IMG/VR virus record: IMGVR_UViG_3300046542_000361
DNA: 64,000 nucleotides
Strand: one strand, 5' to 3'
DNA from: a virus
Lineage: Duplodnaviria > Heunggongvirae > Uroviricota > Caudoviricetes
Part shown: piece by piece, positions 1-59,781 of the stretch
Numbering within the stretch: position 1 is the stretch's first letter
How the letters are laid out: every line of letters begins with the position of its first letter
Position numbers and translations under genes: made by a program
Notes under the pieces: generated by a model
What the model saw: only the letters and a program-made list of their open reading frames with translations
Databases searched by the model: none
What the model was told of the DNA's origin: nothing

Positions 1-428
1 ATCGACTTGGCGATCGCGACATTGTGGGCGTTGGCAAGCTTTGCCTGTCCACCGAGCGCCCGGACGAAGTCGACGACCTTGTCGATGGCGTAGATGTTGA
101 AACGGTCGCTGTCGGCCTCCTTGCCCTGGCGATAGTTGATGAACGCCGGCGTGGTCTTCAGCACCATCAGCACACGCGCCATCGAGGGCAGTGCCAGCTT
201 CGAGCGATAGCTGTTCAGCTTCTTCACCTTGGGCATGTCGGCCGAGCCGTTCGCCTTGCGGCTGATCTCGAACTGGACACGCTCGTCGAAGGCGGCTGCA
301 ACCGTCAGCGCGAACGCCTTGGCGTCATCTTCGTTCACTGCCTTCACCGCGTCCTCGAATATGAAGGCCTGCGGTTCGTTGGACTGCTGGCCGGCCGGTG
401 CCTGGACGGACTTGATTTTCTTGGTCAT
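1..428 (-). CDS. hypothetical protein, partial (start codon at 428, 3' end lies beyond the window start)
   Basis: Minus-strand open frame from ATG at 428 (MTKKIKSVQAPAGQQSNEPQAFIFEDAV...) runs to position 1 without a stop. RBS GGAGAC upstream. Not in the ORF track because it has no stop. The track ORF 24..566(+) is its antisense. Confidence 0.55.
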   Translation of the reverse strand, partial: MTKKIKSVQAPAGQQSNEPQAFIFEDAVKAVNEDDAKAFALTVAAAFDERVQFEISRKANGSADMPKVKKLNSYRSKLALPSMARVLMVLKTTPAFINYRQGKEADSDRFNIYAIDKVVDFVRALGGQAKLANAHNVAIAKS

Positions 429-602
429 TGCGATTGTCTCCGTGTTGTTGACGACTTCGAAAGATTGTTCGCTCTTTCGATGAAAACAACATACGACGTT
501 CAAACGCGGCGTAGTATCTGGCGTGGGTTGGCGCAGCACGGCACGAAGCTTCACTCCGGAGTGTAATCCTTGGACACAATCCTGTCACAAGATTCGCCGT
601 CT

Positions 603-14181: not shown

Positions 14182-14405
14182 CAGAAGCTCTCCGGCGTCG
14201 TGTTCATCGTGGTCAGATCAGCCTTCCACCAGGCCTTGAGCCACTCGAAAGCTTCGGGGTGGCTGGACTCGCAGGCAATTTCCATCGCCTGGTAGAGGGT
14301 GTAGCCGGCGTAGGTCGTCTCACCCTTCTCGTTGGTGCCGTTCAGGTCTATGACGACCGGCTCGAACTTCTTTGCTGCGTTCCTGGACATGTGACTGCTC
14401 CTCAA
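14181..14405 (-). CDS. hypothetical small protein
   Basis: The conserved motif lies upstream at 14403-14428. Confidence 0.5.
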   Translation of the reverse strand: MRSSHMSRNAAKKFEPVVIDLNGTNEKGETTYAGYTLYQAMEIACESSHPEAFEWLKAWWKADLTTMNTTPESF

Positions 14406-14457
14406 TCAATGTTGACTTATCAAATGTCGCACATCGCGACAAGGATTCCGGTAGGTT

Positions 14458-16999: not shown

Positions 17000-17072
17000 G
17001 CTGATCTCCTGATAATCAATCAATGTTTATTTATCGCACAGCGCGAGCAGGATTGCGGTAGGATCGCTGCGG

Positions 17073-17321: not shown

Positions 17322-17401
17322 GTGAATCTCCGTCGTTGATCTGCTGATAGCGCCTCGAGCGGTGACGGTCAATCAGTTTTTACTGACCGTCACCGCGAAA
17401 T

Positions 17402-19162: not shown

Positions 19163-19278
19163 GCTCTAGCTCTCCGTTGTATAACAGAAGAACTATCGCG
19201 CATTTATATTAGGCGATCTATTGGCGCTTGTCGGCAGATGATCCGCCATATTCCCTGAATATTATCTGAACACGAAAT

Positions 19279-19304
19279 AAGCGGCGCATGGGATGCGCCG
19301 CCTT
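19279..19304 (-). terminator. hairpin GCGGCGCAT-ggg-ATGCGCCGC after the rtcB operon
   Basis: Read directly. U-rich tail on the minus strand. Confidence 0.5.
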
Positions 19305-19333
19305 GGTCTGTTGCTTAAACGTTATATCTCGCC

Positions 19334-20791
19334 TTACGAGGCAATCGCCTCCGGCTTCTTTTTCTTCGCGCGCTGCCACTTCATTTCGCCGGCCATGATC
19401 GAGCCTCTGGGCTGGATGCGATCGACAACGTCGGCCAGGCCGTGCTTTGTGATCTGCGCCTGCACCTGGTCGGCGCTCTTGTAGGCCGAGGGAAACTCCG
19501 ACGGGTCGGCAAAGCCGGTGTAGAAGCGAACGTCGAGCCCGGCCGTCTCCTTGATCATCTGGGTCGACACGTCGCGCGGGCTCAAGCCGCGGTCGTCTGA
19601 GCCGTATTCAGCGGCCAGGCGCTTCATATGTGCCGTGCGTGACAGATTGCGGCCGGCGCCGTGCGGTGCAAAGCCGAGTGCGTCCTCGTTGTTGGCGTGC
19701 TTGGTGACGAGGATCGGCTGGGCCATGTTGAGCGGGATCAGCGTCAGGCCGCGGTCGTCAGCTGCGAAGCCGTCATAGGACGGTGTTGCGCCCTTGCCGT
19801 GGTAGTAGAGCCCGTCCGCGCGCCGGAAGACGAAGTTATGCTCGTTCCAGACCTGGTCGATGATCGCATTGCCGAGGTAGTGCGCGATCAGCTGGTGAAT
19901 GCCGAAGTGATTGTATTTCGTCCACAGCCGGACGATCTGCATGGCATCCCAGTAAGCCTTGCCGTCTTCGCTGTTAGCGTCGATCCAGGCATTGTGCAGC
20001 GGGATTCGCGGCGCGACGATGCGCGTGTGCTTCTCTGCAACACGCTTGCCGCGCTTGTAGAGCTGCGCGCCGAGGCCGCGCGAGCCGTGATGCGTGACGA
20101 TCGCCATCTGCTTCGTGCTCTCGAGCTCGCCAACGAAGAGGAAGTGATTGCCGTCGCCCTGGGTCATGAAGTGCTCGACGGCGATATCCTCGAGGCCGCG
20201 CAGGAACGGATTGCTGTCGAACTTGGCGACGATCTGACCGAGGATCGGCGTGAACGCCGACGGAATATCCTTGTCGTTCGTCCGAGCGCCTGGTCCGAAG
20301 TGCGTTGCCTTCATCGCGGCCGTCATCACCTTGCCGACGTCATCGTCGCGCTTGAAGACGCTCATGGCGACGGAGCAGCAGATATCGGCCGAGTGGAAGC
20401 CCGGATGGATCGCGTCTTTGGTCGCCACGACGCCACCGACAGGGATGGTGCCCATCTGGCTGCCGGAAGGGCAGGCGTCAGGCATAACCGCGCCCTTGAC
20501 GATCGTCGGCGTGCGCAGCAGCGCATCCATGTGCGCAATAACCGACGCAGTGTTGAGGATCTCGTCCTCGGTCTCCGGCTCGATGAAGCGGGCGAACGGA
20601 ATGGAGTTCGTGCGCAGCGGCACGCCCTCGGTCACGGCCGGCATGACGCGCAGCGTGAAGAGGTGGTCGATGATCTGCCGATCGCTTTTACCTTCGGCGC
20701 GCATCGCGTTGGCGATGGGCAGAGCCTCTTGAAACCAGGCGCCGGGCTCGAGGCCCCACGAAACGAGGGTCTTTCCAGAAATATTGCTCAC
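19334..20791 (-). CDS. rtcB: RtcB-family RNA 3'-phosphate / 5'-OH ligase
   Basis: GDGNHF, HHGSRGLG and C-terminal HGAGR motifs are diagnostic of RtcB. 485 aa. GTG start with RBS AAAGGAAAG. Confidence 0.85.
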   Translation of the reverse strand: MSNISGKTLVSWGLEPGAWFQEALPIANAMRAEGKSDRQIIDHLFTLRVMPAVTEGVPLRTNSIPFARFIEPETEDEILNTASVIAHMDALLRTPTIVKGAVMPDACPSGSQMGTIPVGGVVATKDAIHPGFHSADICCSVAMSVFKRDDDVGKVMTAAMKATHFGPGARTNDKDIPSAFTPILGQIVAKFDSNPFLRGLEDIAVEHFMTQGDGNHFLFVGELESTKQMAIVTHHGSRGLGAQLYKRGKRVAEKHTRIVAPRIPLHNAWIDANSEDGKAYWDAMQIVRLWTKYNHFGIHQLIAHYLGNAIIDQVWNEHNFVFRRADGLYYHGKGATPSYDGFAADDRGLTLIPLNMAQPILVTKHANNEDALGFAPHGAGRNLSRTAHMKRLAAEYGSDDRGLSPRDVSTQMIKETAGLDVRFYTGFADPSEFPSAYKSADQVQAQITKHGLADVVDRIQPRGSIMAGEMKWQRAKKKKPEAIAS

Positions 20792-25293: not shown

Positions 25294-25330
25294 TTTAGGC
25301 CTTTCATCAATCAATGTTGACTGACTATAA

Positions 25331-30124: not shown

Positions 30125-30146
30125 TCAATCAATATTTACTGAATAG
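30125..30146 (-). promoter_or_regulatory. conserved operon-upstream motif copy (CAATCAATATTTACTGAATAGC) about 35 nt upstream of the rIIA-like gene start
   Basis: One of about 20 related copies; see findings. Confidence 0.5.
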
Positions 30147-31479: not shown

Positions 31480-31500
31480 GACAGGCTCCTTAAACGAAAA

Positions 31501-31530
31501 AGACTAGTCAATCAATGTTTATTGACTAGT
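31501..31530 (-). promoter_or_regulatory. motif copy with perfect 10-bp dyad GACTAGTCAA-tcaatgttta-TTGACTAGTC
   Basis: Between the SPFH gene end and the start of the 31479 gene. Confidence 0.5.
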
Positions 31531-31561
31531 CTTAGAGCAAAAATATGTGGGTTGCTAGCGC

Positions 31562-34110: not shown

Positions 34111-34273
34111 GGATGCTCCTTTCAAGTTCGCCCGCGAGCGCGTGCCGATAGCTCGAGCCGCGGACATTACCGTTGATGAATTGTCTGGTTGCGTCCTCGC
34201 GCAGCCAGGTGATCGTTTCCTTCAAGTCGACCGGGAGGAGGGGCCTTAGATTAGGAACGATCACCTGGCTCAT
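34079..34273 (-). CDS. hypothetical small protein
   Basis: ATGA coupling with the 34270 gene. Confidence 0.45.
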   Translation of the reverse strand: MSQVIVPNLRPLLPVDLKETITWLREDATRQFINGNVRGSSYRHALAGELERSIRERTQNNAED

Positions 34274-34548
34274 GCGACCCTCGGGCCAGGGGCGTCGGAG
34301 AGCTCGAGGGAAACGCGGACGTTGTATTCGACGCCGTTGTGCTTGAACGTCGCCTGGATCATCTTCTCGGTGGCGAGAAAGCCACGAATAAGCTTCTGAT
34401 CGGTGTTCACCACGTCGAGGACGCGATCGACGATAGCCTTGGTGCTATCGAGCAGACGACACTCGGCCTCGGTGATGTCGATCTTGGTCGGTGTCGGCGC
34501 CAGTGCGGCCTTGCGGCGCTCCGGGAACTGAAGAATTGCGGCTGACAT
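34270..34548 (-). CDS. hypothetical protein
   Basis: RBS GAGGAGA. The motif overlaps the RBS at 34558-34586. Confidence 0.55.
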   Translation of the reverse strand: MSAAILQFPERRKAALAPTPTKIDITEAECRLLDSTKAIVDRVLDVVNTDQKLIRGFLATEKMIQATFKHNGVEYNVRVSLELSDAPGPRVA

Positions 34549-34641
34549 GCTGTCTCCTCAATCAATGTTGACTTATGGTTGAAAAGGGATGATCGGTGTG
34601 AGCCGACTTTCAGCAGCGATTACGCTCTAACTGTCATCCAT

Positions 34642-34742
34642 CCCTTATGTGAAGCGTCCGATCCAATGAGCTATTGGCTCACCCATCTTCGCCGTCGCCA
34701 ACTACAACCGACCTCTCGGCCGTCAGACGCTTCACATAAGGG
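34642..34742 (-). ncRNA. candidate structured small RNA: 17-bp perfect inverted repeat (CCCTTATGTGAAGCGTC … GACGCTTCACATAAGGG) around a ~66 nt loop
   Basis: Lies in a 370-nt ORF-free gap. A conserved motif copy sits on each side (34858-34897 and 34558-34586); the former is placed to read into the hairpin on the minus strand. Confidence 0.4.
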
Positions 34743-34924
34743 CCGGGCTTATTTTCTGACGATCCCGGCTCGTCTTGGTTAATCAATTTGGACTGTTTCC
34801 GACGATCACTTAGATGAGCTTCATTGGCACCTCGTCGTTCGTTTTGCTGCGCTTGCGTTCAATCAACATTTACTTACTAGCAAGCGCAGCGATGGGACTC
34901 AAGTGAGAAAATAGAGAATCTGCA

Positions 34925-35146
34925 TTACGCCAGATATTTTCTCAGCGCGTCGAAACCACCGACATGCGTGTCGCCATCCCAAACCTGCGGGAAGGTGTCG
35001 GCGCCGGTGCGGTCTTTGAAGGCGAGCTGCTCCTCACGGGTGGCAAGGTGCTCTTCTTCGAACTCGACGCCACGGACGGCCAGGTGCGCTTTCGCACGCC
35101 TGCACCACTTGCAATCGGGGCGGCTGACGATTTTCCAGCCCATCAT
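34925..35146 (-). CDS. nrdH: glutaredoxin-like NrdH
   Basis: CKWC redox motif. 73 aa. ATGA-coupled to nrdJ. Confidence 0.8.
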   Translation of the reverse strand: MMGWKIVSRPDCKWCRRAKAHLAVRGVEFEEEHLATREEQLAFKDRTGADTFPQVWDGDTHVGGFDALRKYLA

Positions 35147-37563
35147 GCCGCCTCCTTCTCGTCTTCGGCGAAGTCGATCGGGCAGGCGCCGGCGCCGCAG
35201 TCCACATGCTCGAAGCCGATGTCTTCCTTGACGCTGTCGTTCTCGATCGCCGAGGCAATCATTTCGAATTGCGCCTTCGTCACCGGCTGCTCCGGCTGAT
35301 ACTCATAGGCCGACGTGTCGGTCTGCGGCATCACAGAGCAGCAGCGGATCGAAAACTGGCCGTCGATCAGCGTATGCAGGAAGTGTTCGAAATCGACCAC
35401 CTTCGGATCATACTTGAGGGTGTAGCTGACCTGGTTGCCGGTTTCATTGAGGAGGGACTGACCGGCCTCGTCGACGCCGTGGATCCAATACTTCTCCAGC
35501 AGGCGCAGGAATTCGTATTGATCTTCAGGCGTGGCTTCAGCAGCCGTGACCACCCAGGCGCCACCGTCCAGCTCGCAGATCCGCGGCTTGGTCGGGAAAC
35601 CAACGACGGTCGTGCCTTCGTAGGTCTTCAGCCGCTTCACCGGATAGCCCATTTCCTCATACTGCGCGACCAGCGGGTCGTCGTTGCGGAACTGCACCCA
35701 ACGGATGAACTCGCGCATCGAGGGCAGGTGAGCGCCTTCGGTGAGGCCGAACAGCTTCGAGGTCGTCCCGGCCGGCTTGAACGTCGTGTTGGTGTGCGGC
35801 ACGTTCACGCCGAGGATCGCAGCGAACTCGATCGCCTCCTCGTCGATGGCACGCTTGAAGCGCGACAGCGTCATCCACATCGCCTTCGACTTTTCCTCGT
35901 TGACGATATCGTGCCAGGTGAAGCCGAAGCGGGCATAGGCCCATTCATGGAAGCCGGTGATGCCGACGCCGATGCGGTTGGTGCGGTTGACCTCGCGCCG
36001 ATAAAGGCAGTCCATCGTGTTGACGCGCATCAGCGCACGCACAGCGGCACGGAAGGCGCTTTCAGCGTCGTCGTCGTTCTGGGCATGGAACGGCACCACG
36101 TCAGCGATGACGCAGTAAGCGCCAAGCATCAGCAGCGTGATCTCGCCGCAAGGGTTTGTGATCATGGTGTATTTGACACCCATAACCACGCGAGCGAGGG
36201 CTGCCATCAGCGGCACGGTTTCGGCGTCGACCTGGAAGCGCGAGGAGCCGGCATAGAGCCCGTCGACATAATCCTCGATGCCGTCGTTGTTCTGCGTCAG
36301 CTTGTCCTGATTAATGATGCCGGGCTCGCCGGTGCCATCGAAGTAGGAAGCCTTGGCGAGCTCGATCAGCACCTTCCAGGCGTGCGCCTCGATCTCGGTG
36401 ATGGCGTTGATGGCACGCAGGAACACCAGGCGCTGCACGGAGTTCGTCAGATCGCCGTCGCCGAGCTGGTTGCGAACCTTCTTACAGGCGGCGCGGAACT
36501 CGTCATCGATGGTGACGGAGTTGTTCGAAGACCAGAGGAAGCCACCGCGCTTCAGCTGGATGAAGCCGAAGATCGTCTTGTCCTTCCAGTGCTTCGTCGC
36601 CATACGGGCAGCGCGGCGCGCACCGCCGACGAGAACGCACTCGGCCGCGTAGTGGTCGGCATACATTGCGGCACGCCACGGCTCCATGCCGGCATCGCGC
36701 AGCAGTGCGATATTGGCGATCGCCGACATCAGCGGGCCGGGGCCAGACGCCGGGCGGTTCTGCATGCCCTTGATCGGAGAACCGTTCTCGCGCACGCCGG
36801 TAAAGTCGAGGATCAACACCTCGTCGCGGCGACCTTCGAAGGCCATGCGCTCGATGATTTCGACGGCTTTCGCCCAGCCCTCGCGGCTGTCGGGCACTTC
36901 GAAGATGGTGGTCTTGCGGCCGGCATAGAGGTGCTCGGCGTCGCGGCGCGTCTTGTAGCCCGAGATCAGTCCGCGCTGCACGTCCTTGTGCGACCAGTCG
37001 ATGACAGGCACGACGATCGGCATTTCGTTGTAGTCGGCGCGGATCATCAAGTCGTCATATGCGCGACCGACGCCGGAGCCGTTGAGCAGCAGATAGAAGA
37101 GCAGGAAGGTGGCAGCTGCCGTCGAGCAGTTGGTGAAGACTTCCTGGTTGCGTTCCGGCTGCGTCTCGTCGCCGTGCTGCAGGTGCCGGCCGGACATCAG
37201 GAGCGAGGCCTGGCGCAGATGGTGATTGAGCGTCGAATATTCGAACTGCTGGGCGTTTGCGCCACGCGGATCGAGCAGCGAGTTACCAAGGGCGACACGA
37301 TGGGCAACGTCGGACCAGGTCTCAACGCGCGTTGGCGGCTTTGCCCAGTGAGTGAAGCTGTTGGCATGATCGATGCCGATCGCGATACCCTGCGCGGCGG
37401 CAGCTCCGACGTAGAACTCGCGGTTCGGGTCGTTCTCGCTGATGACCGGAAACGACGGGAATTGCACTGCGGAATAGTCGGGGATCTTACGGTTGATGGT
37501 GCGGTCAGCGACAGCCTGACCCATGCCAGGGAAGTAATCCCTGGCGGGCGTGAACATATTCAT
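35143..37563 (-). CDS. nrdJ: class II (adenosylcobalamin-dependent) ribonucleotide reductase
   Basis: 806 aa. Active-site MITNPCGEITL. RBS CAGGAGTAA. Confidence 0.8.
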   Translation of the reverse strand: MNMFTPARDYFPGMGQAVADRTINRKIPDYSAVQFPSFPVISENDPNREFYVGAAAAQGIAIGIDHANSFTHWAKPPTRVETWSDVAHRVALGNSLLDPRGANAQQFEYSTLNHHLRQASLLMSGRHLQHGDETQPERNQEVFTNCSTAAATFLLFYLLLNGSGVGRAYDDLMIRADYNEMPIVVPVIDWSHKDVQRGLISGYKTRRDAEHLYAGRKTTIFEVPDSREGWAKAVEIIERMAFEGRRDEVLILDFTGVRENGSPIKGMQNRPASGPGPLMSAIANIALLRDAGMEPWRAAMYADHYAAECVLVGGARRAARMATKHWKDKTIFGFIQLKRGGFLWSSNNSVTIDDEFRAACKKVRNQLGDGDLTNSVQRLVFLRAINAITEIEAHAWKVLIELAKASYFDGTGEPGIINQDKLTQNNDGIEDYVDGLYAGSSRFQVDAETVPLMAALARVVMGVKYTMITNPCGEITLLMLGAYCVIADVVPFHAQNDDDAESAFRAAVRALMRVNTMDCLYRREVNRTNRIGVGITGFHEWAYARFGFTWHDIVNEEKSKAMWMTLSRFKRAIDEEAIEFAAILGVNVPHTNTTFKPAGTTSKLFGLTEGAHLPSMREFIRWVQFRNDDPLVAQYEEMGYPVKRLKTYEGTTVVGFPTKPRICELDGGAWVVTAAEATPEDQYEFLRLLEKYWIHGVDEAGQSLLNETGNQVSYTLKYDPKVVDFEHFLHTLIDGQFSIRCCSVMPQTDTSAYEYQPEQPVTKAQFEMIASAIENDSVKEDIGFEHVDCGAGACPIDFAEDEKEAA

Positions 37564-37597
37564 AATTTACTCCTGATTTTCGAAAGGCACCTATGCT

Positions 37598-37623
37598 AAA
37601 TCAATATTGATTGACTGCATAGG
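37598..37623 (-). promoter_or_regulatory. conserved motif copy (AAATCAATATTGATTGACTGCATAGG) upstream of nrdJ
   Basis: Dyad ATCAAT-ATTG-ATTGA. Confidence 0.5.
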
Positions 37624-44289: not shown

Positions 44290-44303
44290 AAAGTTCTCCT
44301 GTA

Positions 44304-44379
44304 AGTCATTATTGACTGACTAGCGTTTGAATAGCGCGTCGCACAACGGGAAGCAATCAATATTTACTGACTATTTGAC
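44304..44379 (-). promoter_or_regulatory. two tandem motif copies upstream of the small membrane gene / sbcD operon
   Basis: AGTCATTATTGACTGACTAGCGTTTGAATAGC and CAATCAATATTTACTGACTATTTGAC. Confidence 0.5.
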
Positions 44380-50075: not shown

Positions 50076-50110
50076 TGAGTCAGTCAATTTTGACTGACTG
50101 TTGAATAGAC
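50076..50110 (-). promoter_or_regulatory. conserved motif copy: perfect dyad GTCAGTCAA-TT-TTGACTGAC plus TGAATAG module
   Basis: Upstream of the 49805 gene. Confidence 0.5.
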
Positions 50111-54389: not shown

Positions 54390-54919
54390 CAACCTCTCCT
54401 CAGTGTGACCAGGCCGTCGATATTGTCGACAGCGCCAATGTGTGTGAGCGCCTGGATCGTCATGCGCGCGTGACTGTCTGCCGTGCCTTCGGTCCAGCCG
54501 AGCTTCGTCGTGAAAGCATAGGCGAGCGTGTGCCGATCGAGCGGCTGGCGCATCTTGAGCAGCAGGTGCCCGGCGATCTTCAGGAAGCTCGACGAACCGG
54601 CGAACGGGTTGACGCCTTTGGCGAAGTTTTCGGTGACGCGCAGATTGGAGCTGTCGAGCTTCTCGACCAGCGCCATGACCTTCTTCGGCACCGTCAGTTC
54701 GGCGGGATGCGCCGCTGGCTTTTCAGCGAGCGGGTTCTTGGCTTTCTTCGAGCCCTTGCCTGTCACGCCGACGCGCTCTCGAAGGATCTCGAGATTGGCG
54801 AAATGCAGCGGCCGGCAGGTCTCGGCGAACTTGCAGACCGCGCACACCGGCGCCGTCTCTTCAAATGCAAGTGCAGAGCCAAAGCAGCCAGGCGCAAATG
54901 ACGGGATAATGACGTTCAT
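54389..54919 (-). CDS. hypothetical protein with Cys-rich N-terminus
   Basis: RBS AAAGGA. ATGA-coupled to the sigma factor gene. Confidence 0.5.
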   Translation of the reverse strand: MNVIIPSFAPGCFGSALAFEETAPVCAVCKFAETCRPLHFANLEILRERVGVTGKGSKKAKNPLAEKPAAHPAELTVPKKVMALVEKLDSSNLRVTENFAKGVNPFAGSSSFLKIAGHLLLKMRQPLDRHTLAYAFTTKLGWTEGTADSHARMTIQALTHIGAVDNIDGLVTLRRG

Positions 54920-55548
54920 GCGGCAGTCCTTTGAACCTTCTCGGAGAGCGTGCGCAGCTCGGCGAGGATCTTCGTGCGTTCCGGGCGGTCGGCGTCCATC
55001 AGGCGAAACACGAAGGACGTCGTTATGTGGCTGATCAGAATGTTCTGCGCGCCGATCGACTTGGCGTATTCGGCGCGCGCCTTCAGCAAGCGCATCTGCT
55101 CCAAGAGTTCGGGCGGCTGCTCATAGAGGAGCTTCAAAAACAGCGCGCTGCGTTCGCTCAGCCGCCGCAGCGCCCATGCGATGTGTGTCGCTTCATCCAC
55201 CTGCGCATCCGGCGAGGGCTCGCTCGAAGGCATCAGGTCGACCAGCTTGTCGTTTTCGTCGCTATTGCCGACGGGCGCGTCGAGCCGCTGGGCGCGCTCC
55301 TCGCCGATCCGCTTGAACATCTTGCGATTGATCTCGAGCTTGGAGCGGCGAATACCCTCGATCAGATACGCGTTGAAGGGCACGCCGAGCATCGGATCGA
55401 ACGTGTCGCGTGCGCGGCACCAGACGAGCCAAAGCTCTTGCTCGACGTCATCATGGCTAAGCGATGTTGCGCCGTTGCCATGAAGCTTCCTTGCGATCGA
55501 CCAGGACAGACGCCGGATCAGCTCGACGCTCTCCTTATGGTCAATCAT
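54916..55548 (-). CDS. sigma-70 family (ECF-like) RNA polymerase sigma factor
   Basis: Region-2-like DVEQELWLVWCRARDTFDP…FNAYLIEGIRRS and a C-terminal region-4-like helix. 210 aa. Confidence 0.6.
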   Translation of the reverse strand: MIDHKESVELIRRLSWSIARKLHGNGATSLSHDDVEQELWLVWCRARDTFDPMLGVPFNAYLIEGIRRSKLEINRKMFKRIGEERAQRLDAPVGNSDENDKLVDLMPSSEPSPDAQVDEATHIAWALRRLSERSALFLKLLYEQPPELLEQMRLLKARAEYAKSIGAQNILISHITTSFVFRLMDADRPERTKILAELRTLSEKVQRTAA

Positions 55549-56807: not shown

Positions 56808-56845
56808 TAAAATCTCCGTTCGATGTTGCGATCTGTCGTCGCGTT

Positions 56846-56914
56846 CAATCAATATTTACTTACTAACAAGCGTAGCGATGGGATGCAATCAGTTTTTACT
56901 GACCGACTGCATTA
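56846..56914 (-). promoter_or_regulatory. two tandem motif copies upstream of the CobS-like gene; the first is a ~40-nt element near-identical to 34858-34897
   Basis: CAATCAATATTTACTTACTAACAAGCGTAGCGATGGGA then CAATCAGTTTTTACTGACCGACTGCATTA. Confidence 0.5.
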
Positions 56915-59442: not shown

Positions 59443-59484
59443 TTCGCACTCCGTTAAATCAATTTTGATTGATTATTTATCGCA

Positions 59485-59715: not shown

Positions 59716-59781
59716 GATGCGTCCTTTGTCATGTCAACACCGATCAGTCAATATTTACTGATGGAGCTAGAGAAAGAAAAA

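Follow-up and report, generated by a model that had tools for sequence, protein, structure and literature searches.

Does the gene-free gap between a glutaredoxin/NrdH-like gene and the 92-amino-acid (92-aa) gene that follows it encode an RNA of its own, and of what kind would that RNA be? The gap lies in a 64,000-nt stretch of Caudoviricetes DNA (IMG/VR record IMGVR_UViG_3300046542_000361), hereafter the window, whose genes are practically all on the minus strand, including every gene near the gap. A first-pass annotation of the window had drawn attention to a 17-bp inverted repeat in the gap and had proposed a small RNA candidate there. We find that this repeat closes a cloverleaf-shaped element, named element B, which is very probably a real and selected RNA structure of the minus strand, and we tentatively read the whole gap as a conserved noncoding transcription unit or leader on that strand.

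The window is related to Rhizobium phage RHEph10 and to the RHph_N1_15, N1_10, and Y2_11 phages, with 84 to 91% identity around the gap. Published descriptions of the RHEph10 group speak of plasmid-like prophages carrying a RepC-type replicon (PMC4447125, PMC7969092), and the 115.6-kb “plasmid” p5 of Pararhizobium qamdonense falls into the same RHEph10-like group. Nine distinct sequences spanning the gap were compared, i.e., the window, N1_15 (equivalent to N2_6), N1_10, RHEph10, Y2_11 (equivalent to Y2_17_1), the IMG/VR contigs L005, L006, and L007, and p5 (L009). A tenth sequence, the metagenome fragment L030, is cut at a hairpin preceding element B (hairpin A) and contributes the leader only.

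Element B and its long stem

The annotated repeat, CCCTTATGTGAAGCGTC at positions 34642-34658 with its exact reverse complement at 34726-34742, is present as described and extends to 20 nt (34642-34661/34723-34742) with one non-Watson-Crick position, where the minus strand has a U.G wobble and the plus strand a C.A mismatch. Among inverted repeats with a loop of up to 200 nt, the 17-bp repeat is the longest in the window. The longest repeat in 40 composition-preserving block shuffles ranged from 10 to 14 bp, with 0/40 reaching 15 bp, and the number of 17-bp repeats expected by arithmetic is about 7e-4. A long stem of 17 to 21 bp was found in all nine sequences spanning the site, with differing stem sequences and interiors. 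Each of the four stem differences between RHEph10 and the window is a double (compensatory) change, and several further stem pairs are changed in L006, among them one in the otherwise conserved base of the stem (CCTTTATG/CATAAAGG). N1_10 carries a perfect 21-bp stem with a different upper part, and Y2_11 carries an unrelated 18-bp stem in the same place.

The interior was aligned for the six sequences with an X-type interior. According to RNAalifold, this alignment folds into a four-way junction with a closing stem of 15 + 4 bp and three hairpins of 5, 5, and 7 bp, whose loops are GAGA, an 8-nt loop, and GAGCCAAUA. The structure comprises 36 pairs with 95.7% of the alignment cells in standard pairs, compared to 29 to 47% in slid-partner controls. 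Double changes occur in 13 of the 36 pairs and none of 500 shuffles reached the observed values, the structure having been derived from the same alignment that was used to score it. Covariation across related phages, which the first-pass annotation had put forward as a check of its candidate, is thus observed. The inner palindrome that it had singled out (CCAATGAGCTATTGG) is also present but is not the conserved helix, since the comparison supports GAUGGGU/GCUCAUU on the minus strand instead.

We then considered which strand carries the structure. The consensus energy of the whole of element B is -41.6 on the minus strand versus -27.5 on the plus strand, and that of the interior alone is -14.9 (z of -5.1) versus -2.0 (z of -0.5). 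The two strands differ by 12.6 kcal/mol for the window sequence and by 17.7 kcal/mol for the unrelated Y2_11 element (-71.8 versus -54.1 kcal/mol), and the interior helices are rich in G.U pairs, which become C.A on the plus strand. Because a palindrome acting in the DNA would be strand symmetric, whereas the interior structure is found on the minus strand only, element B is an RNA feature of the gene strand rather than a DNA palindrome.

Element B is also better conserved than the genes that flank it. Between the window and p5, the leader is 85 to 90% identical and element B is 86 to 89% identical, compared to 60 to 76% for the glutaredoxin and 92-aa coding sequences; the 92-aa proteins are 54% identical. 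A covariance model of element B, run on the window and on 100 kb of RHEph10, found a single locus in each, and blastn found one place per record. Outside the sequences compared, a pattern scan of genome contigs with the conserved leader returned no further relatives, a metagenome scan returned no match with a 27-nt leader pattern and 38 matches with 18 nt, L030 being the sole real one, and searches with the 92-aa protein gave no additional loci. A search of plasmids with elements B and C (the latter is described below) and leader-pattern scans of viral, genome, and metagenome collections found nothing outside the RHEph10-like group. The family is therefore narrow, with 9 to 10 distinct sequences so far confined to RHEph10-like phage-plasmids.

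Putative promoter/operator block, genome-wide 18-mer, and leader

All relatives share a common minus-strand order, i.e., a promoter/operator block, a mini-open reading frame (mini-ORF), a conserved box with a degenerate 18-nt motif (18-mer), hairpin A, the long stem, optional modules, and a third 18-mer. The putative block is composed of a -35-like CTTGAG/TTGAGT (34897-34903), a 17-nt spacer, a -10-like TAGTAA (34874-34879), and the 18-mer TAAGTAAATGTTGATTGA (34859-34876), which overlaps the -10/+1 region; across relatives it follows the pattern TTGNNT-CCCATCGCTRCGCTTGY-TAGTAA-GTAAATRTTGATTGA. As annotated previously, an element of about 40 nt is duplicated, the 39-nt stretch 34859-34897 having one other match, at 56845-56883, with 3 mismatches where 0 matches are expected by chance. 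Exactly two blocks were counted per genome in all relatives, the gap copy and a copy upstream of the cobS-like gene. The paralogous block is somewhat longer than 39 nt, running from the -35-like TTG through the end of the 18-mer (TTGNNTCCCATCGCTRCGCTTGYTAGTAAGTAAATRTTGATTGA), and these limits, from the TTG to just past the 18-mer, would be the footprint expected of a promoter plus operator. The second copy lies 37 nt ahead of the cobS-like ATG, in the same orientation as the gap copy, and heads the cobS-sigma operon; a further 18-mer there (56885-56902) overlaps a -35-like TTGCAT. An 11-bp inverted repeat around the first 18-mer of the gap is kept at this locus in the relatives and is absent at the cobS copy.

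Between the glutaredoxin gene of p5 and the block lie a terminator-like hairpin and two genes on the opposite strand, one of which codes for a helix-turn-helix regulator; the mini-ORF, hairpin A, and element B come after the block. The same divergent arrangement is found in L030, where the block, the mini-ORF, and hairpin A are kept. Because the block and the RNA are retained in p5 although the glutaredoxin gene is separated from them by the terminator-like hairpin and the two opposite-strand genes, it is plausible that the unit carries its own promoter, for which the conserved block is the obvious candidate. The earlier suggestion that this element is placed to drive minus-strand transcription through the hairpin agrees with its orientation, shared with the cobS paralogue, and with its retention in p5, but no sigma-70 consensus promoter was scored. 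Its resemblance to the rhizobial consensus, CTTGAC-N17-CTATAT, is loose. The phage also encodes its own sigma-70-region-2 protein, which bears on the polymerase holoenzyme that would read the block. As a separate observation, the divergent gene immediately upstream of the promoter-like block is found at 404-1340 in p5 (L009) and at 150-310 in L030. The p5 gene carries a helix-turn-helix regulator annotation and has GTCTTAC/GTAAGAC repeats of its own in front of it, an arrangement like that of a switch region.

The gap had been described as bracketed by two motif copies. Instead, it holds three copies (34558-34575, 34779-34796, and 34859-34876) of a genome-wide 18-nt quasi-palindrome, T[CA]A[GA]T[CA]AA-NN-TT[GT]A[CT]T[GT]A (consensus TCAGTCAA-NN-TTGACTGA). 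This motif has 25 matches in the window versus 0.04 expected (about 20 to 25 copies, or about one per 3 kb) and 31 matches in the first 100 kb of RHEph10, the structural-gene region included. The sites in the window and in RHEph10 are all intergenic. They lie 9 to 52 nt before many start codons and upstream of many operons, often right after canonical terminators, and are sometimes doubled around a promoter or placed at the center of a 34- to 38-bp palindrome (17359-17396, 31500-31533). The third gap copy leads directly into the Shine-Dalgarno (SD) sequence and ATG of the 92-aa gene, an arrangement that recurs at 14402-14419 and at other genes. The half-sites of the motif show no covariation, which fits a DNA site. 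The 18-mer is most likely an operator rather than a signal specific to a small RNA and probably belongs to a global phage-plasmid regulator. It may also form part of a promoter recognized by a phage sigma factor.

Downstream of the block, the SD sequence, the ATG, and the in-frame stop of the mini-ORF are kept in all 10 sequences. Eight peptides are predicted (MKLI, MKSL, MKRL, MKHL, MTKF, MKK, MKQ, and MKR), the stop is TAA, TAG, or TGA, and the length changes by exactly one codon, which preserves the frame. The maintenance of a 3- to 4-codon frame despite eight peptides, three stop codons, and whole-codon length changes suggests that the mini-ORF is translated. Hairpin A, which appears in the predicted folds, is the most conserved piece of the gap and is near invariant in 10/10 sequences, including the distant L030; its sequence is too constant to show covariation. 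Inspected by eye, the invariant minus-strand stretch 34743-34775, AGACGA-GCCGGG-A-UCGUC-AGAAAAUAAG-CCCGGC, could form an H-type pseudoknot. In this candidate pairing, an alternative to the simple hairpin, GACGA/UCGUC would cross GCCGGG/CCCGGC with an A-rich third loop.

Element C, the cassette slot, and candidate identities

Element B is followed by a Y-shaped hairpin, element C, and the two overlap by three G residues (34642-34644), which are the 5′ bases of C and the final bases of the stem of B. A terminator scan of C gave a weak match (GTCGGCTCACACCGAT + CATCCCTTTT at 34607..34592) in a Y-shaped hairpin with 4 U only. Element C is present in RHEph10 and L005, diverged in p5, and absent in RHph_N1_15, and in L007 its interior lies inside the long stem; the GGG is common to B and C in the window, RHEph10, L005, and, despite the diverged C, p5. 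Covariation of the Y module gave no strand preference, with too few sequences. The optional modules found after the stem are C (window, RHEph10, L005, and p5), a tRNA-Cys (RHEph10 and L007), a module of about 110 nt termed “Z” (N1_10, L005, and L007), and tRNA-like pieces (L006). In RHEph10 and L007, the tRNA-Cys is on the same strand as the stem, and in L007 the two overlap by one base, the last of the long stem being the first of the tRNA, while in N1_15 the long stem abuts the final 18-mer and the SD sequence. On the sequences compared, element B is thus the constant occupant of a cassette slot in which tRNA-Cys, tRNA-like pieces, and other structured modules are optional.

Two of these modules deserve a separate mention. 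The L006 region at about 150-485 (minus strand) contains two tRNA-like pieces with good T-arms (AAGGGCTCGAATCCCTT; GGGGTTCGACTCCTC...ACCA) that are called by neither ARAGORN nor Rfam, and the Z module, which in L005, L003, and L007 separates the last 18-mer from the long stem or the tRNA, may encode a peptide of about 30 residues (MTVRRKPSTICTVENGRVGCLSRWKNLPKA in L005).

Next, element B was compared with known RNA classes. Rfam returned no match for the whole window at the gathering threshold, nor for positions 34500-34960 (461 nt) at an E value of ≤10, including the tRNA, tmRNA, YrlA, C4, and hammerhead models, and ARAGORN found no tRNA or tmRNA in the window. Both programs do detect the tRNA-Cys of RHEph10 and L007, which is the only Rfam hit among the relatives apart from chance matches in L006. 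An identity of B as a tRNA was rejected on these two results. With its 101 nt and a stem of 17 to 20 bp, B has the size and long terminal stem of Y RNAs (80 to 130 nt), but its loops carry no T-arm/D-arm signature and, with no Rfam match at the same E value, a Y RNA/YrlA identity was set aside as well; a scan of 29 window ORFs, all the large ones among them, gave no Ro60/TROVE domain. The P1 c4/P4 CI type is not supported, there being no C4 match at an E value of ≤10. A crude duplex search of the B interior against the leader and downstream sequence, including the ribosome-binding site, returned mainly long duplexes of no significance, and no compact interaction that was conserved. Riboswitches of the four-way junction type (cobalamin, SAM-I) were rejected because Rfam gave no match and the interior is swapped in N1_10, L007, and Y2_11. 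A multi-copy repeat or miniature inverted-repeat element does not fit a single copy per genome. Element C is not a hammerhead, as its GGAUGA ... CUGAAAG has a core one base short and lacks C3/U4 (expected core, CUGANGA ... GAAA ... UH), with no Rfam hammerhead at an E value of ≤10.

A plain intrinsic terminator was also rejected, since no U-tract is found 3′ of the stem of B, where the window reads AUGGAUGAC and the relatives are all just as poor in U. The reservation that the hairpin might act only as a terminator for the nrdH operon is therefore not borne out. The canonical terminators of the window consist of a short GC-rich stem and a U-run, with examples after rtcB and upstream of the 18-mers at 44353-44370 and 59744-59761. 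Coding readings (a plus-strand 67-aa ORF, a minus-strand 35-aa ORF, and a 13-codon frame inside B) are contradicted by frameshifting length differences and deletions in relatives. The plus-strand ORF at 34579-34782, already suspected to be spurious, has its start region deleted in RHph_N1_15 and its frame shifted by one-base length differences, and the view that the gap holds no protein-like ORF stands, as it is noncoding save for the 4-codon mini-ORF.

Coordinates are collected in Table 1. A class II ribonucleotide reductase gene lies upstream of the glutaredoxin gene, two further small ORFs and thyX lie downstream of the 92-aa gene, and the genes downstream of the gap sit in a nucleotide-metabolism cluster. 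No transposase or integrase was found near the gap. Some observations on the neighborhood stand apart from the gap itself. The reductase has been swapped, being B12-dependent class II in the window (35143-37563) and class I alpha + beta in RHEph10 (L053 7454-10113). This exchange lies directly upstream of the conserved glutaredoxin gene and noncoding unit, and the phage also has cobS/cobT-like genes. At 34203-34217/34256-34270 (minus strand), right after the ATG of a 64-aa gene, the start of which forms an ATGA overlap with the 92-aa stop codon, is a perfect 15-bp inverted repeat with a 38-nt loop. N1_15 and N1_10 show a compensatory double change in it, from GGTGATC/GATCACC to GGCGATC/GATCGCC, within coding sequence, and the repeat is likely an RNA hairpin that enforces translational coupling. 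Finally, the gap downstream of rtcB (19163-19333, minus strand) has a z of -4.4 on the minus strand versus +0.1 on the other. It consists mainly of a canonical terminator (GGCGGCGCAU-CCC-AUGCGCCGCU, then a U-run), with further small hairpins and no Rfam match.

Table 1. Coordinates of the gap, its predicted elements, and related features of the window
Feature	Position	Strand	Description
Gap	34549-34924		376 nt, gene-free; between glutaredoxin/NrdH-like gene and 92-aa gene
Glutaredoxin/NrdH-like gene	34925-35146	minus	upstream of gap
Promoter/operator block (putative)	34859..34903	minus	invariant in 9 relatives
11-bp inverted repeat GCTGCGCTTGC/GCAAGCGCAGC	34846..34890	none	encloses first 18-mer copy
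Mini-ORF ATG AAG CTC ATC TAA (MKLI*)	34824-34810	minus	strong SD-like GAGGTG at 34828-34833
Conserved box GATCGTCGGAAA	34796-34807	minus	GAYCGTCGGA across relatives; repeated in hairpin A loop
Second, degenerate 18-mer copy ACAGTCCAAATTGATTAA	34779-34796	minus	follows conserved box
Hairpin A, GCCGGG - AUCGUCAGAAAAUAA(G) - CCCGG(C)	34743..34769	minus	abuts long stem
Element B	34642..34742	minus	101 nt; predicted four-way junction, cloverleaf-shaped, three interior hairpins
Element C, Y-shaped hairpin	34582..34644	minus	closing stem GGGAUGG/UCAUCCC, two arms, then UUUU (34582-34585)
Third 18-mer copy TAAGTCAACATTGATTGA	34558-34575	minus	directly followed by SD GGAGA (34553-34557) and ATG (34548-34546) of 92-aa gene
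92-aa gene	34270-34548	minus	function unassigned; downstream of gap
Paralogous promoter/operator block (putative)	56845..56902 (block proper, 56845-56889)	minus	upstream of cobS-like gene
18-mer sites, examples	14402-14419, 17016-17033, 25307-25324, 30125-30142, 31508-31525, 37597-37614, 44302-44319
18-mer sites, further examples	44353-44370, 50080-50097, 56845-56862, 56885-56902, 59455-59472, 59744-59761
RtcB RNA ligase gene	19334-20791	minus	counterpart in RHEph10 is gp099
Sigma-70-region-2 protein gene	54916-55548	minus	immediately downstream of cobS-like gene

Readings of the unit and its known counterparts

The reading that we favor, tentatively and with slightly less than even confidence, is that the gap is a conserved noncoding transcription unit, or a leader, of the gene strand, with its processing and stability determined by the long stem. 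A sigma-70-like promoter would start an RNA near 34865-34870, its -10/+1 region lying under the 18-bp operator-like palindrome. The leader would comprise the translated mini-ORF of 3 to 4 codons and the invariant hairpin A, followed by the cloverleaf of about 100 nt closed by its 17- to 20-bp stem and then by the Y-shaped C and its U-run, with which it shares three G residues. This array would be cotranscribed with, or transcribed just ahead of, the operon that starts with the 92-aa gene. A double-strand-specific nuclease such as RNase III would cut the long stem, while in relatives RNase P would cut the abutting tRNA. Processing would release a stable structured RNA of about 60 to 100 nt and set the ends of the flanking messages. 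We propose an RNase III-type processing or stability signal because about two turns of perfect duplex are present independently of sequence, the position is intercistronic, and the stem is fused to a tRNA in L007. That the released RNA has a role of its own is suggested by the covariation of its interior in six relatives. The original small-RNA proposal is thus partly supported. That a structured RNA of the minus strand lies behind a plausible promoter is well supported, and this RNA may be a free small RNA, a processed leader, or an attenuator. Given that the element forms one array with tRNA-Cys in relatives, directly upstream of the next operon, B may be part of a leader, processed or acting in cis, instead of an independent small RNA of 100 to 200 nt. 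The element is best described as a candidate structured RNA family, uncatalogued in Rfam, of the kind of phage small structured RNAs or processed leaders.

Several points weigh against this reading. The strand signals in the closing stem are mixed, as several minus-strand C.A mismatches in L005, N1_15, and p5 are G.U on the plus strand. The covariation statistics are modest, since they stem from 6 to 9 distinct related sequences of one narrow group whose kinship inflates them. N1_10, L007, and Y2_11 have unrelated sequences in place of the interior, which implies that only the stem is universally needed and makes one conserved trans-acting RNA less likely. In addition, a generic sigma-70 scan with an E. 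coli-type consensus calls no promoter at the block, whose -10-like hexamer is weak. RNase III cleavage is something that we purely infer, and we likewise infer promoter activity and the start site, mini-ORF translation, processing, and any function in trans.

The main rival, which we judge unlikely, is a cis-acting attenuator or immunity-type leader in which B and C would compete for the GGG at 34642-34644, with the mini-ORF and operator tuning the outcome. With B formed, C would be weakened and transcription would read through into the 92-aa operon; with B opened, cut, or bound, C would terminate. The order of an operator-overlapped promoter, a structured RNA, a hairpin with a U-run, and small ORFs fits such a leader, as do the GGG shared in the window, RHEph10, L005, and p5 with its diverged C, the divergent helix-turn-helix regulator that, together with its repeats, lies directly upstream in p5 and L030, and a host element that is a plasmid-prophage like P1, which has dispersed operators and a processed c4 RNA. 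However, C is missing in RHph_N1_15, where B abuts the 18-mer and the SD sequence, and a tRNA-Cys stands between B/C and the gene in RHEph10 and L007, where a strong terminator at C would silence it. The minimum-energy fold forms B completely with no balanced switch evident, the loops of B show no convincing conserved complementarity to the downstream ribosome-binding site, Rfam gave no C4 match, and the downstream genes belong to the nucleotide-metabolism cluster without an antirepressor signature. It is also conceivable, though rather unlikely, that the locus is an RNA-based regulatory or counter-defense cassette slot. Element B would then be cut out of a leader under operator control and work in trans, either as an immunity RNA of the c4/CA type governing read-through into the downstream operon or as a tRNA-shaped, RtcB-linked decoy or scaffold, the swapped interiors and tRNA modules would reflect an arms race with host defenses that target tRNA, and the mini-ORF would couple the system to translation status. 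Quite improbable, in our estimation, is a tRNA-derived mimic, in which B (and C) would be degenerate tRNA-like RNAs serving as a decoy or substrate tied to anticodon nucleases and the phage RtcB, or as a Y-RNA-like scaffold. The loops lack a T-loop or D-loop signature, ARAGORN and the Rfam tRNA, tmRNA, and YrlA models returned nothing even at an E value of ≤10, no TROVE/Ro60 domain was seen in the 29 ORFs scanned, and the interior is interchangeable between relatives, against which can be set the cloverleaf topology with four helices around one junction, the tRNA-Cys and tRNA-like fragments held by the slot in relatives, the RtcB encoded by the phage, and the precedent of Y RNAs, which have a long terminal stem and a tRNA-like domain and occur in phages (PMC4201824).

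Two further explanations were weighed. Very stable stems protect 3′ ends, B lies downstream of the glutaredoxin stop, and no strong canonical terminator was found between the glutaredoxin gene and B, so the hairpin could only mark the end of the ribonucleotide reductase-glutaredoxin transcript, as a terminator, 3′-end stabilizer, or insulator. We regard this as very improbable, because no U-tract follows B in any relative, the canonical terminators of the window look different, and B lies about 180 nt from the stop codon, behind the conserved promoter-like block and the mini-ORF. Furthermore, in p5 the glutaredoxin gene has its own terminator-like hairpin and two opposite-strand genes intervene, yet B is still 86 to 89% identical, and a covarying interior of three hairpins would be unnecessary for a terminator. 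A DNA-level palindrome, be it a cruciform, a protein-binding or recombination site, or the remnant of a miniature mobile element with exchangeable cargo, would account for a conserved stem base (CCCTTATG/CATAAGGG) with differing interiors, for cassette boundaries at the stem, and for closing-stem mismatches without a clear strand preference. Its probability is nevertheless extremely low, considering the G.U-dependent interior helices that exist on the minus strand only, the strand differences calculated for the window and Y2_11, the single copy per genome, the searches that came back empty outside the group (plasmids with B and C, leader patterns elsewhere), and the absence of a transposase or integrase nearby.

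The favored reading, a processed noncoding unit or leader, can be compared with several known systems. Processed leader or immunity RNAs of phage-plasmids include the P4 CI RNA and the N15 CA RNA. Phage P1 has 22 dispersed 17-bp operators for its C1 repressor, which are asymmetric (PMC8546580), and c4 of P1/P7 is described in a passage of the same source, citing Citron and Schuster (1992), as a processed antisense leader RNA. Like the c4 type, the unit belongs to a plasmid-prophage, and its putative promoter overlaps a candidate repressor operator with many copies elsewhere in the genome; an RNA of about 80 to 100 nt closed by its own ends would lie in the leader of a small-ORF operon with a terminator-like hairpin after it. 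Unlike c4, it has no Rfam C4 match and no conserved complementarity to a ribosome-binding site was found, the genes downstream of the gap are not recognizable as icd/ant, and the RNA interior is swapped between close relatives. Similarly, the 18-mer, a putative operator, resembles the C1 operators in occurring about once per 3 kb genome-wide, upstream of many operons and sometimes doubled at a promoter, but it is quasi-palindromic whereas those of P1 are asymmetric.

Y RNAs measure 80 to 130 nt, their 5′ and 3′ ends form a long stem, and they carry a tRNA-like domain; they are found in phages, cotranscription with tRNA is possible, and Salmonella Y RNAs have been linked to RtcB (PMC4201824). 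Element B shares with the YrlA/Yrn1 RNAs its size and a long terminal stem closing a multibranched domain, and the phage has RtcB, but B shows neither a T-/D-arm signature nor a YrlA match, its neighbors are glutaredoxin and small ORFs, and rtcB is 14 kb away. Stems processed by RNase III are known from the early mRNA of phage T7 and from the flanks of 16S and 23S rRNA. The stem of B is akin to these in offering about two turns of double-stranded RNA with conserved length (17 to 21 bp) rather than sequence, at an intercistronic position of a one-directional unit. It differs from the T7 sites, which have a characteristic internal loop, in being perfect, and its covarying interior suggests more than a cleavage signal. 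Finally, the species 1 and 2 RNAs of phage T4 lie in a tRNA cluster and are structured non-tRNAs of about 100 to 140 nt, the function of which was long unknown. As in T4, a structured RNA here would share a unit and its processing with phage tRNAs, but the phage lineage is another one, there is no sequence relation, and the tRNA is optional while the structured RNA is constant.

The regulation of RHEph10-like plasmid-prophages of nitrogen-fixing rhizobia is essentially unstudied, and this locus offers three handles on it. These are the operator-like 18-bp motif together with the two paralogous promoter blocks, the mini-ORF kept in all relatives, and the covarying RNA of about 100 nt. At the least, it represents a candidate RNA family and a cassette hotspot where tRNA genes come and go. 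Should the RNA prove to be a processed regulator or a tRNA-shaped decoy, the theme of RNA-based control known from P1, P4, and N15 would extend to the alphaproteobacteria.

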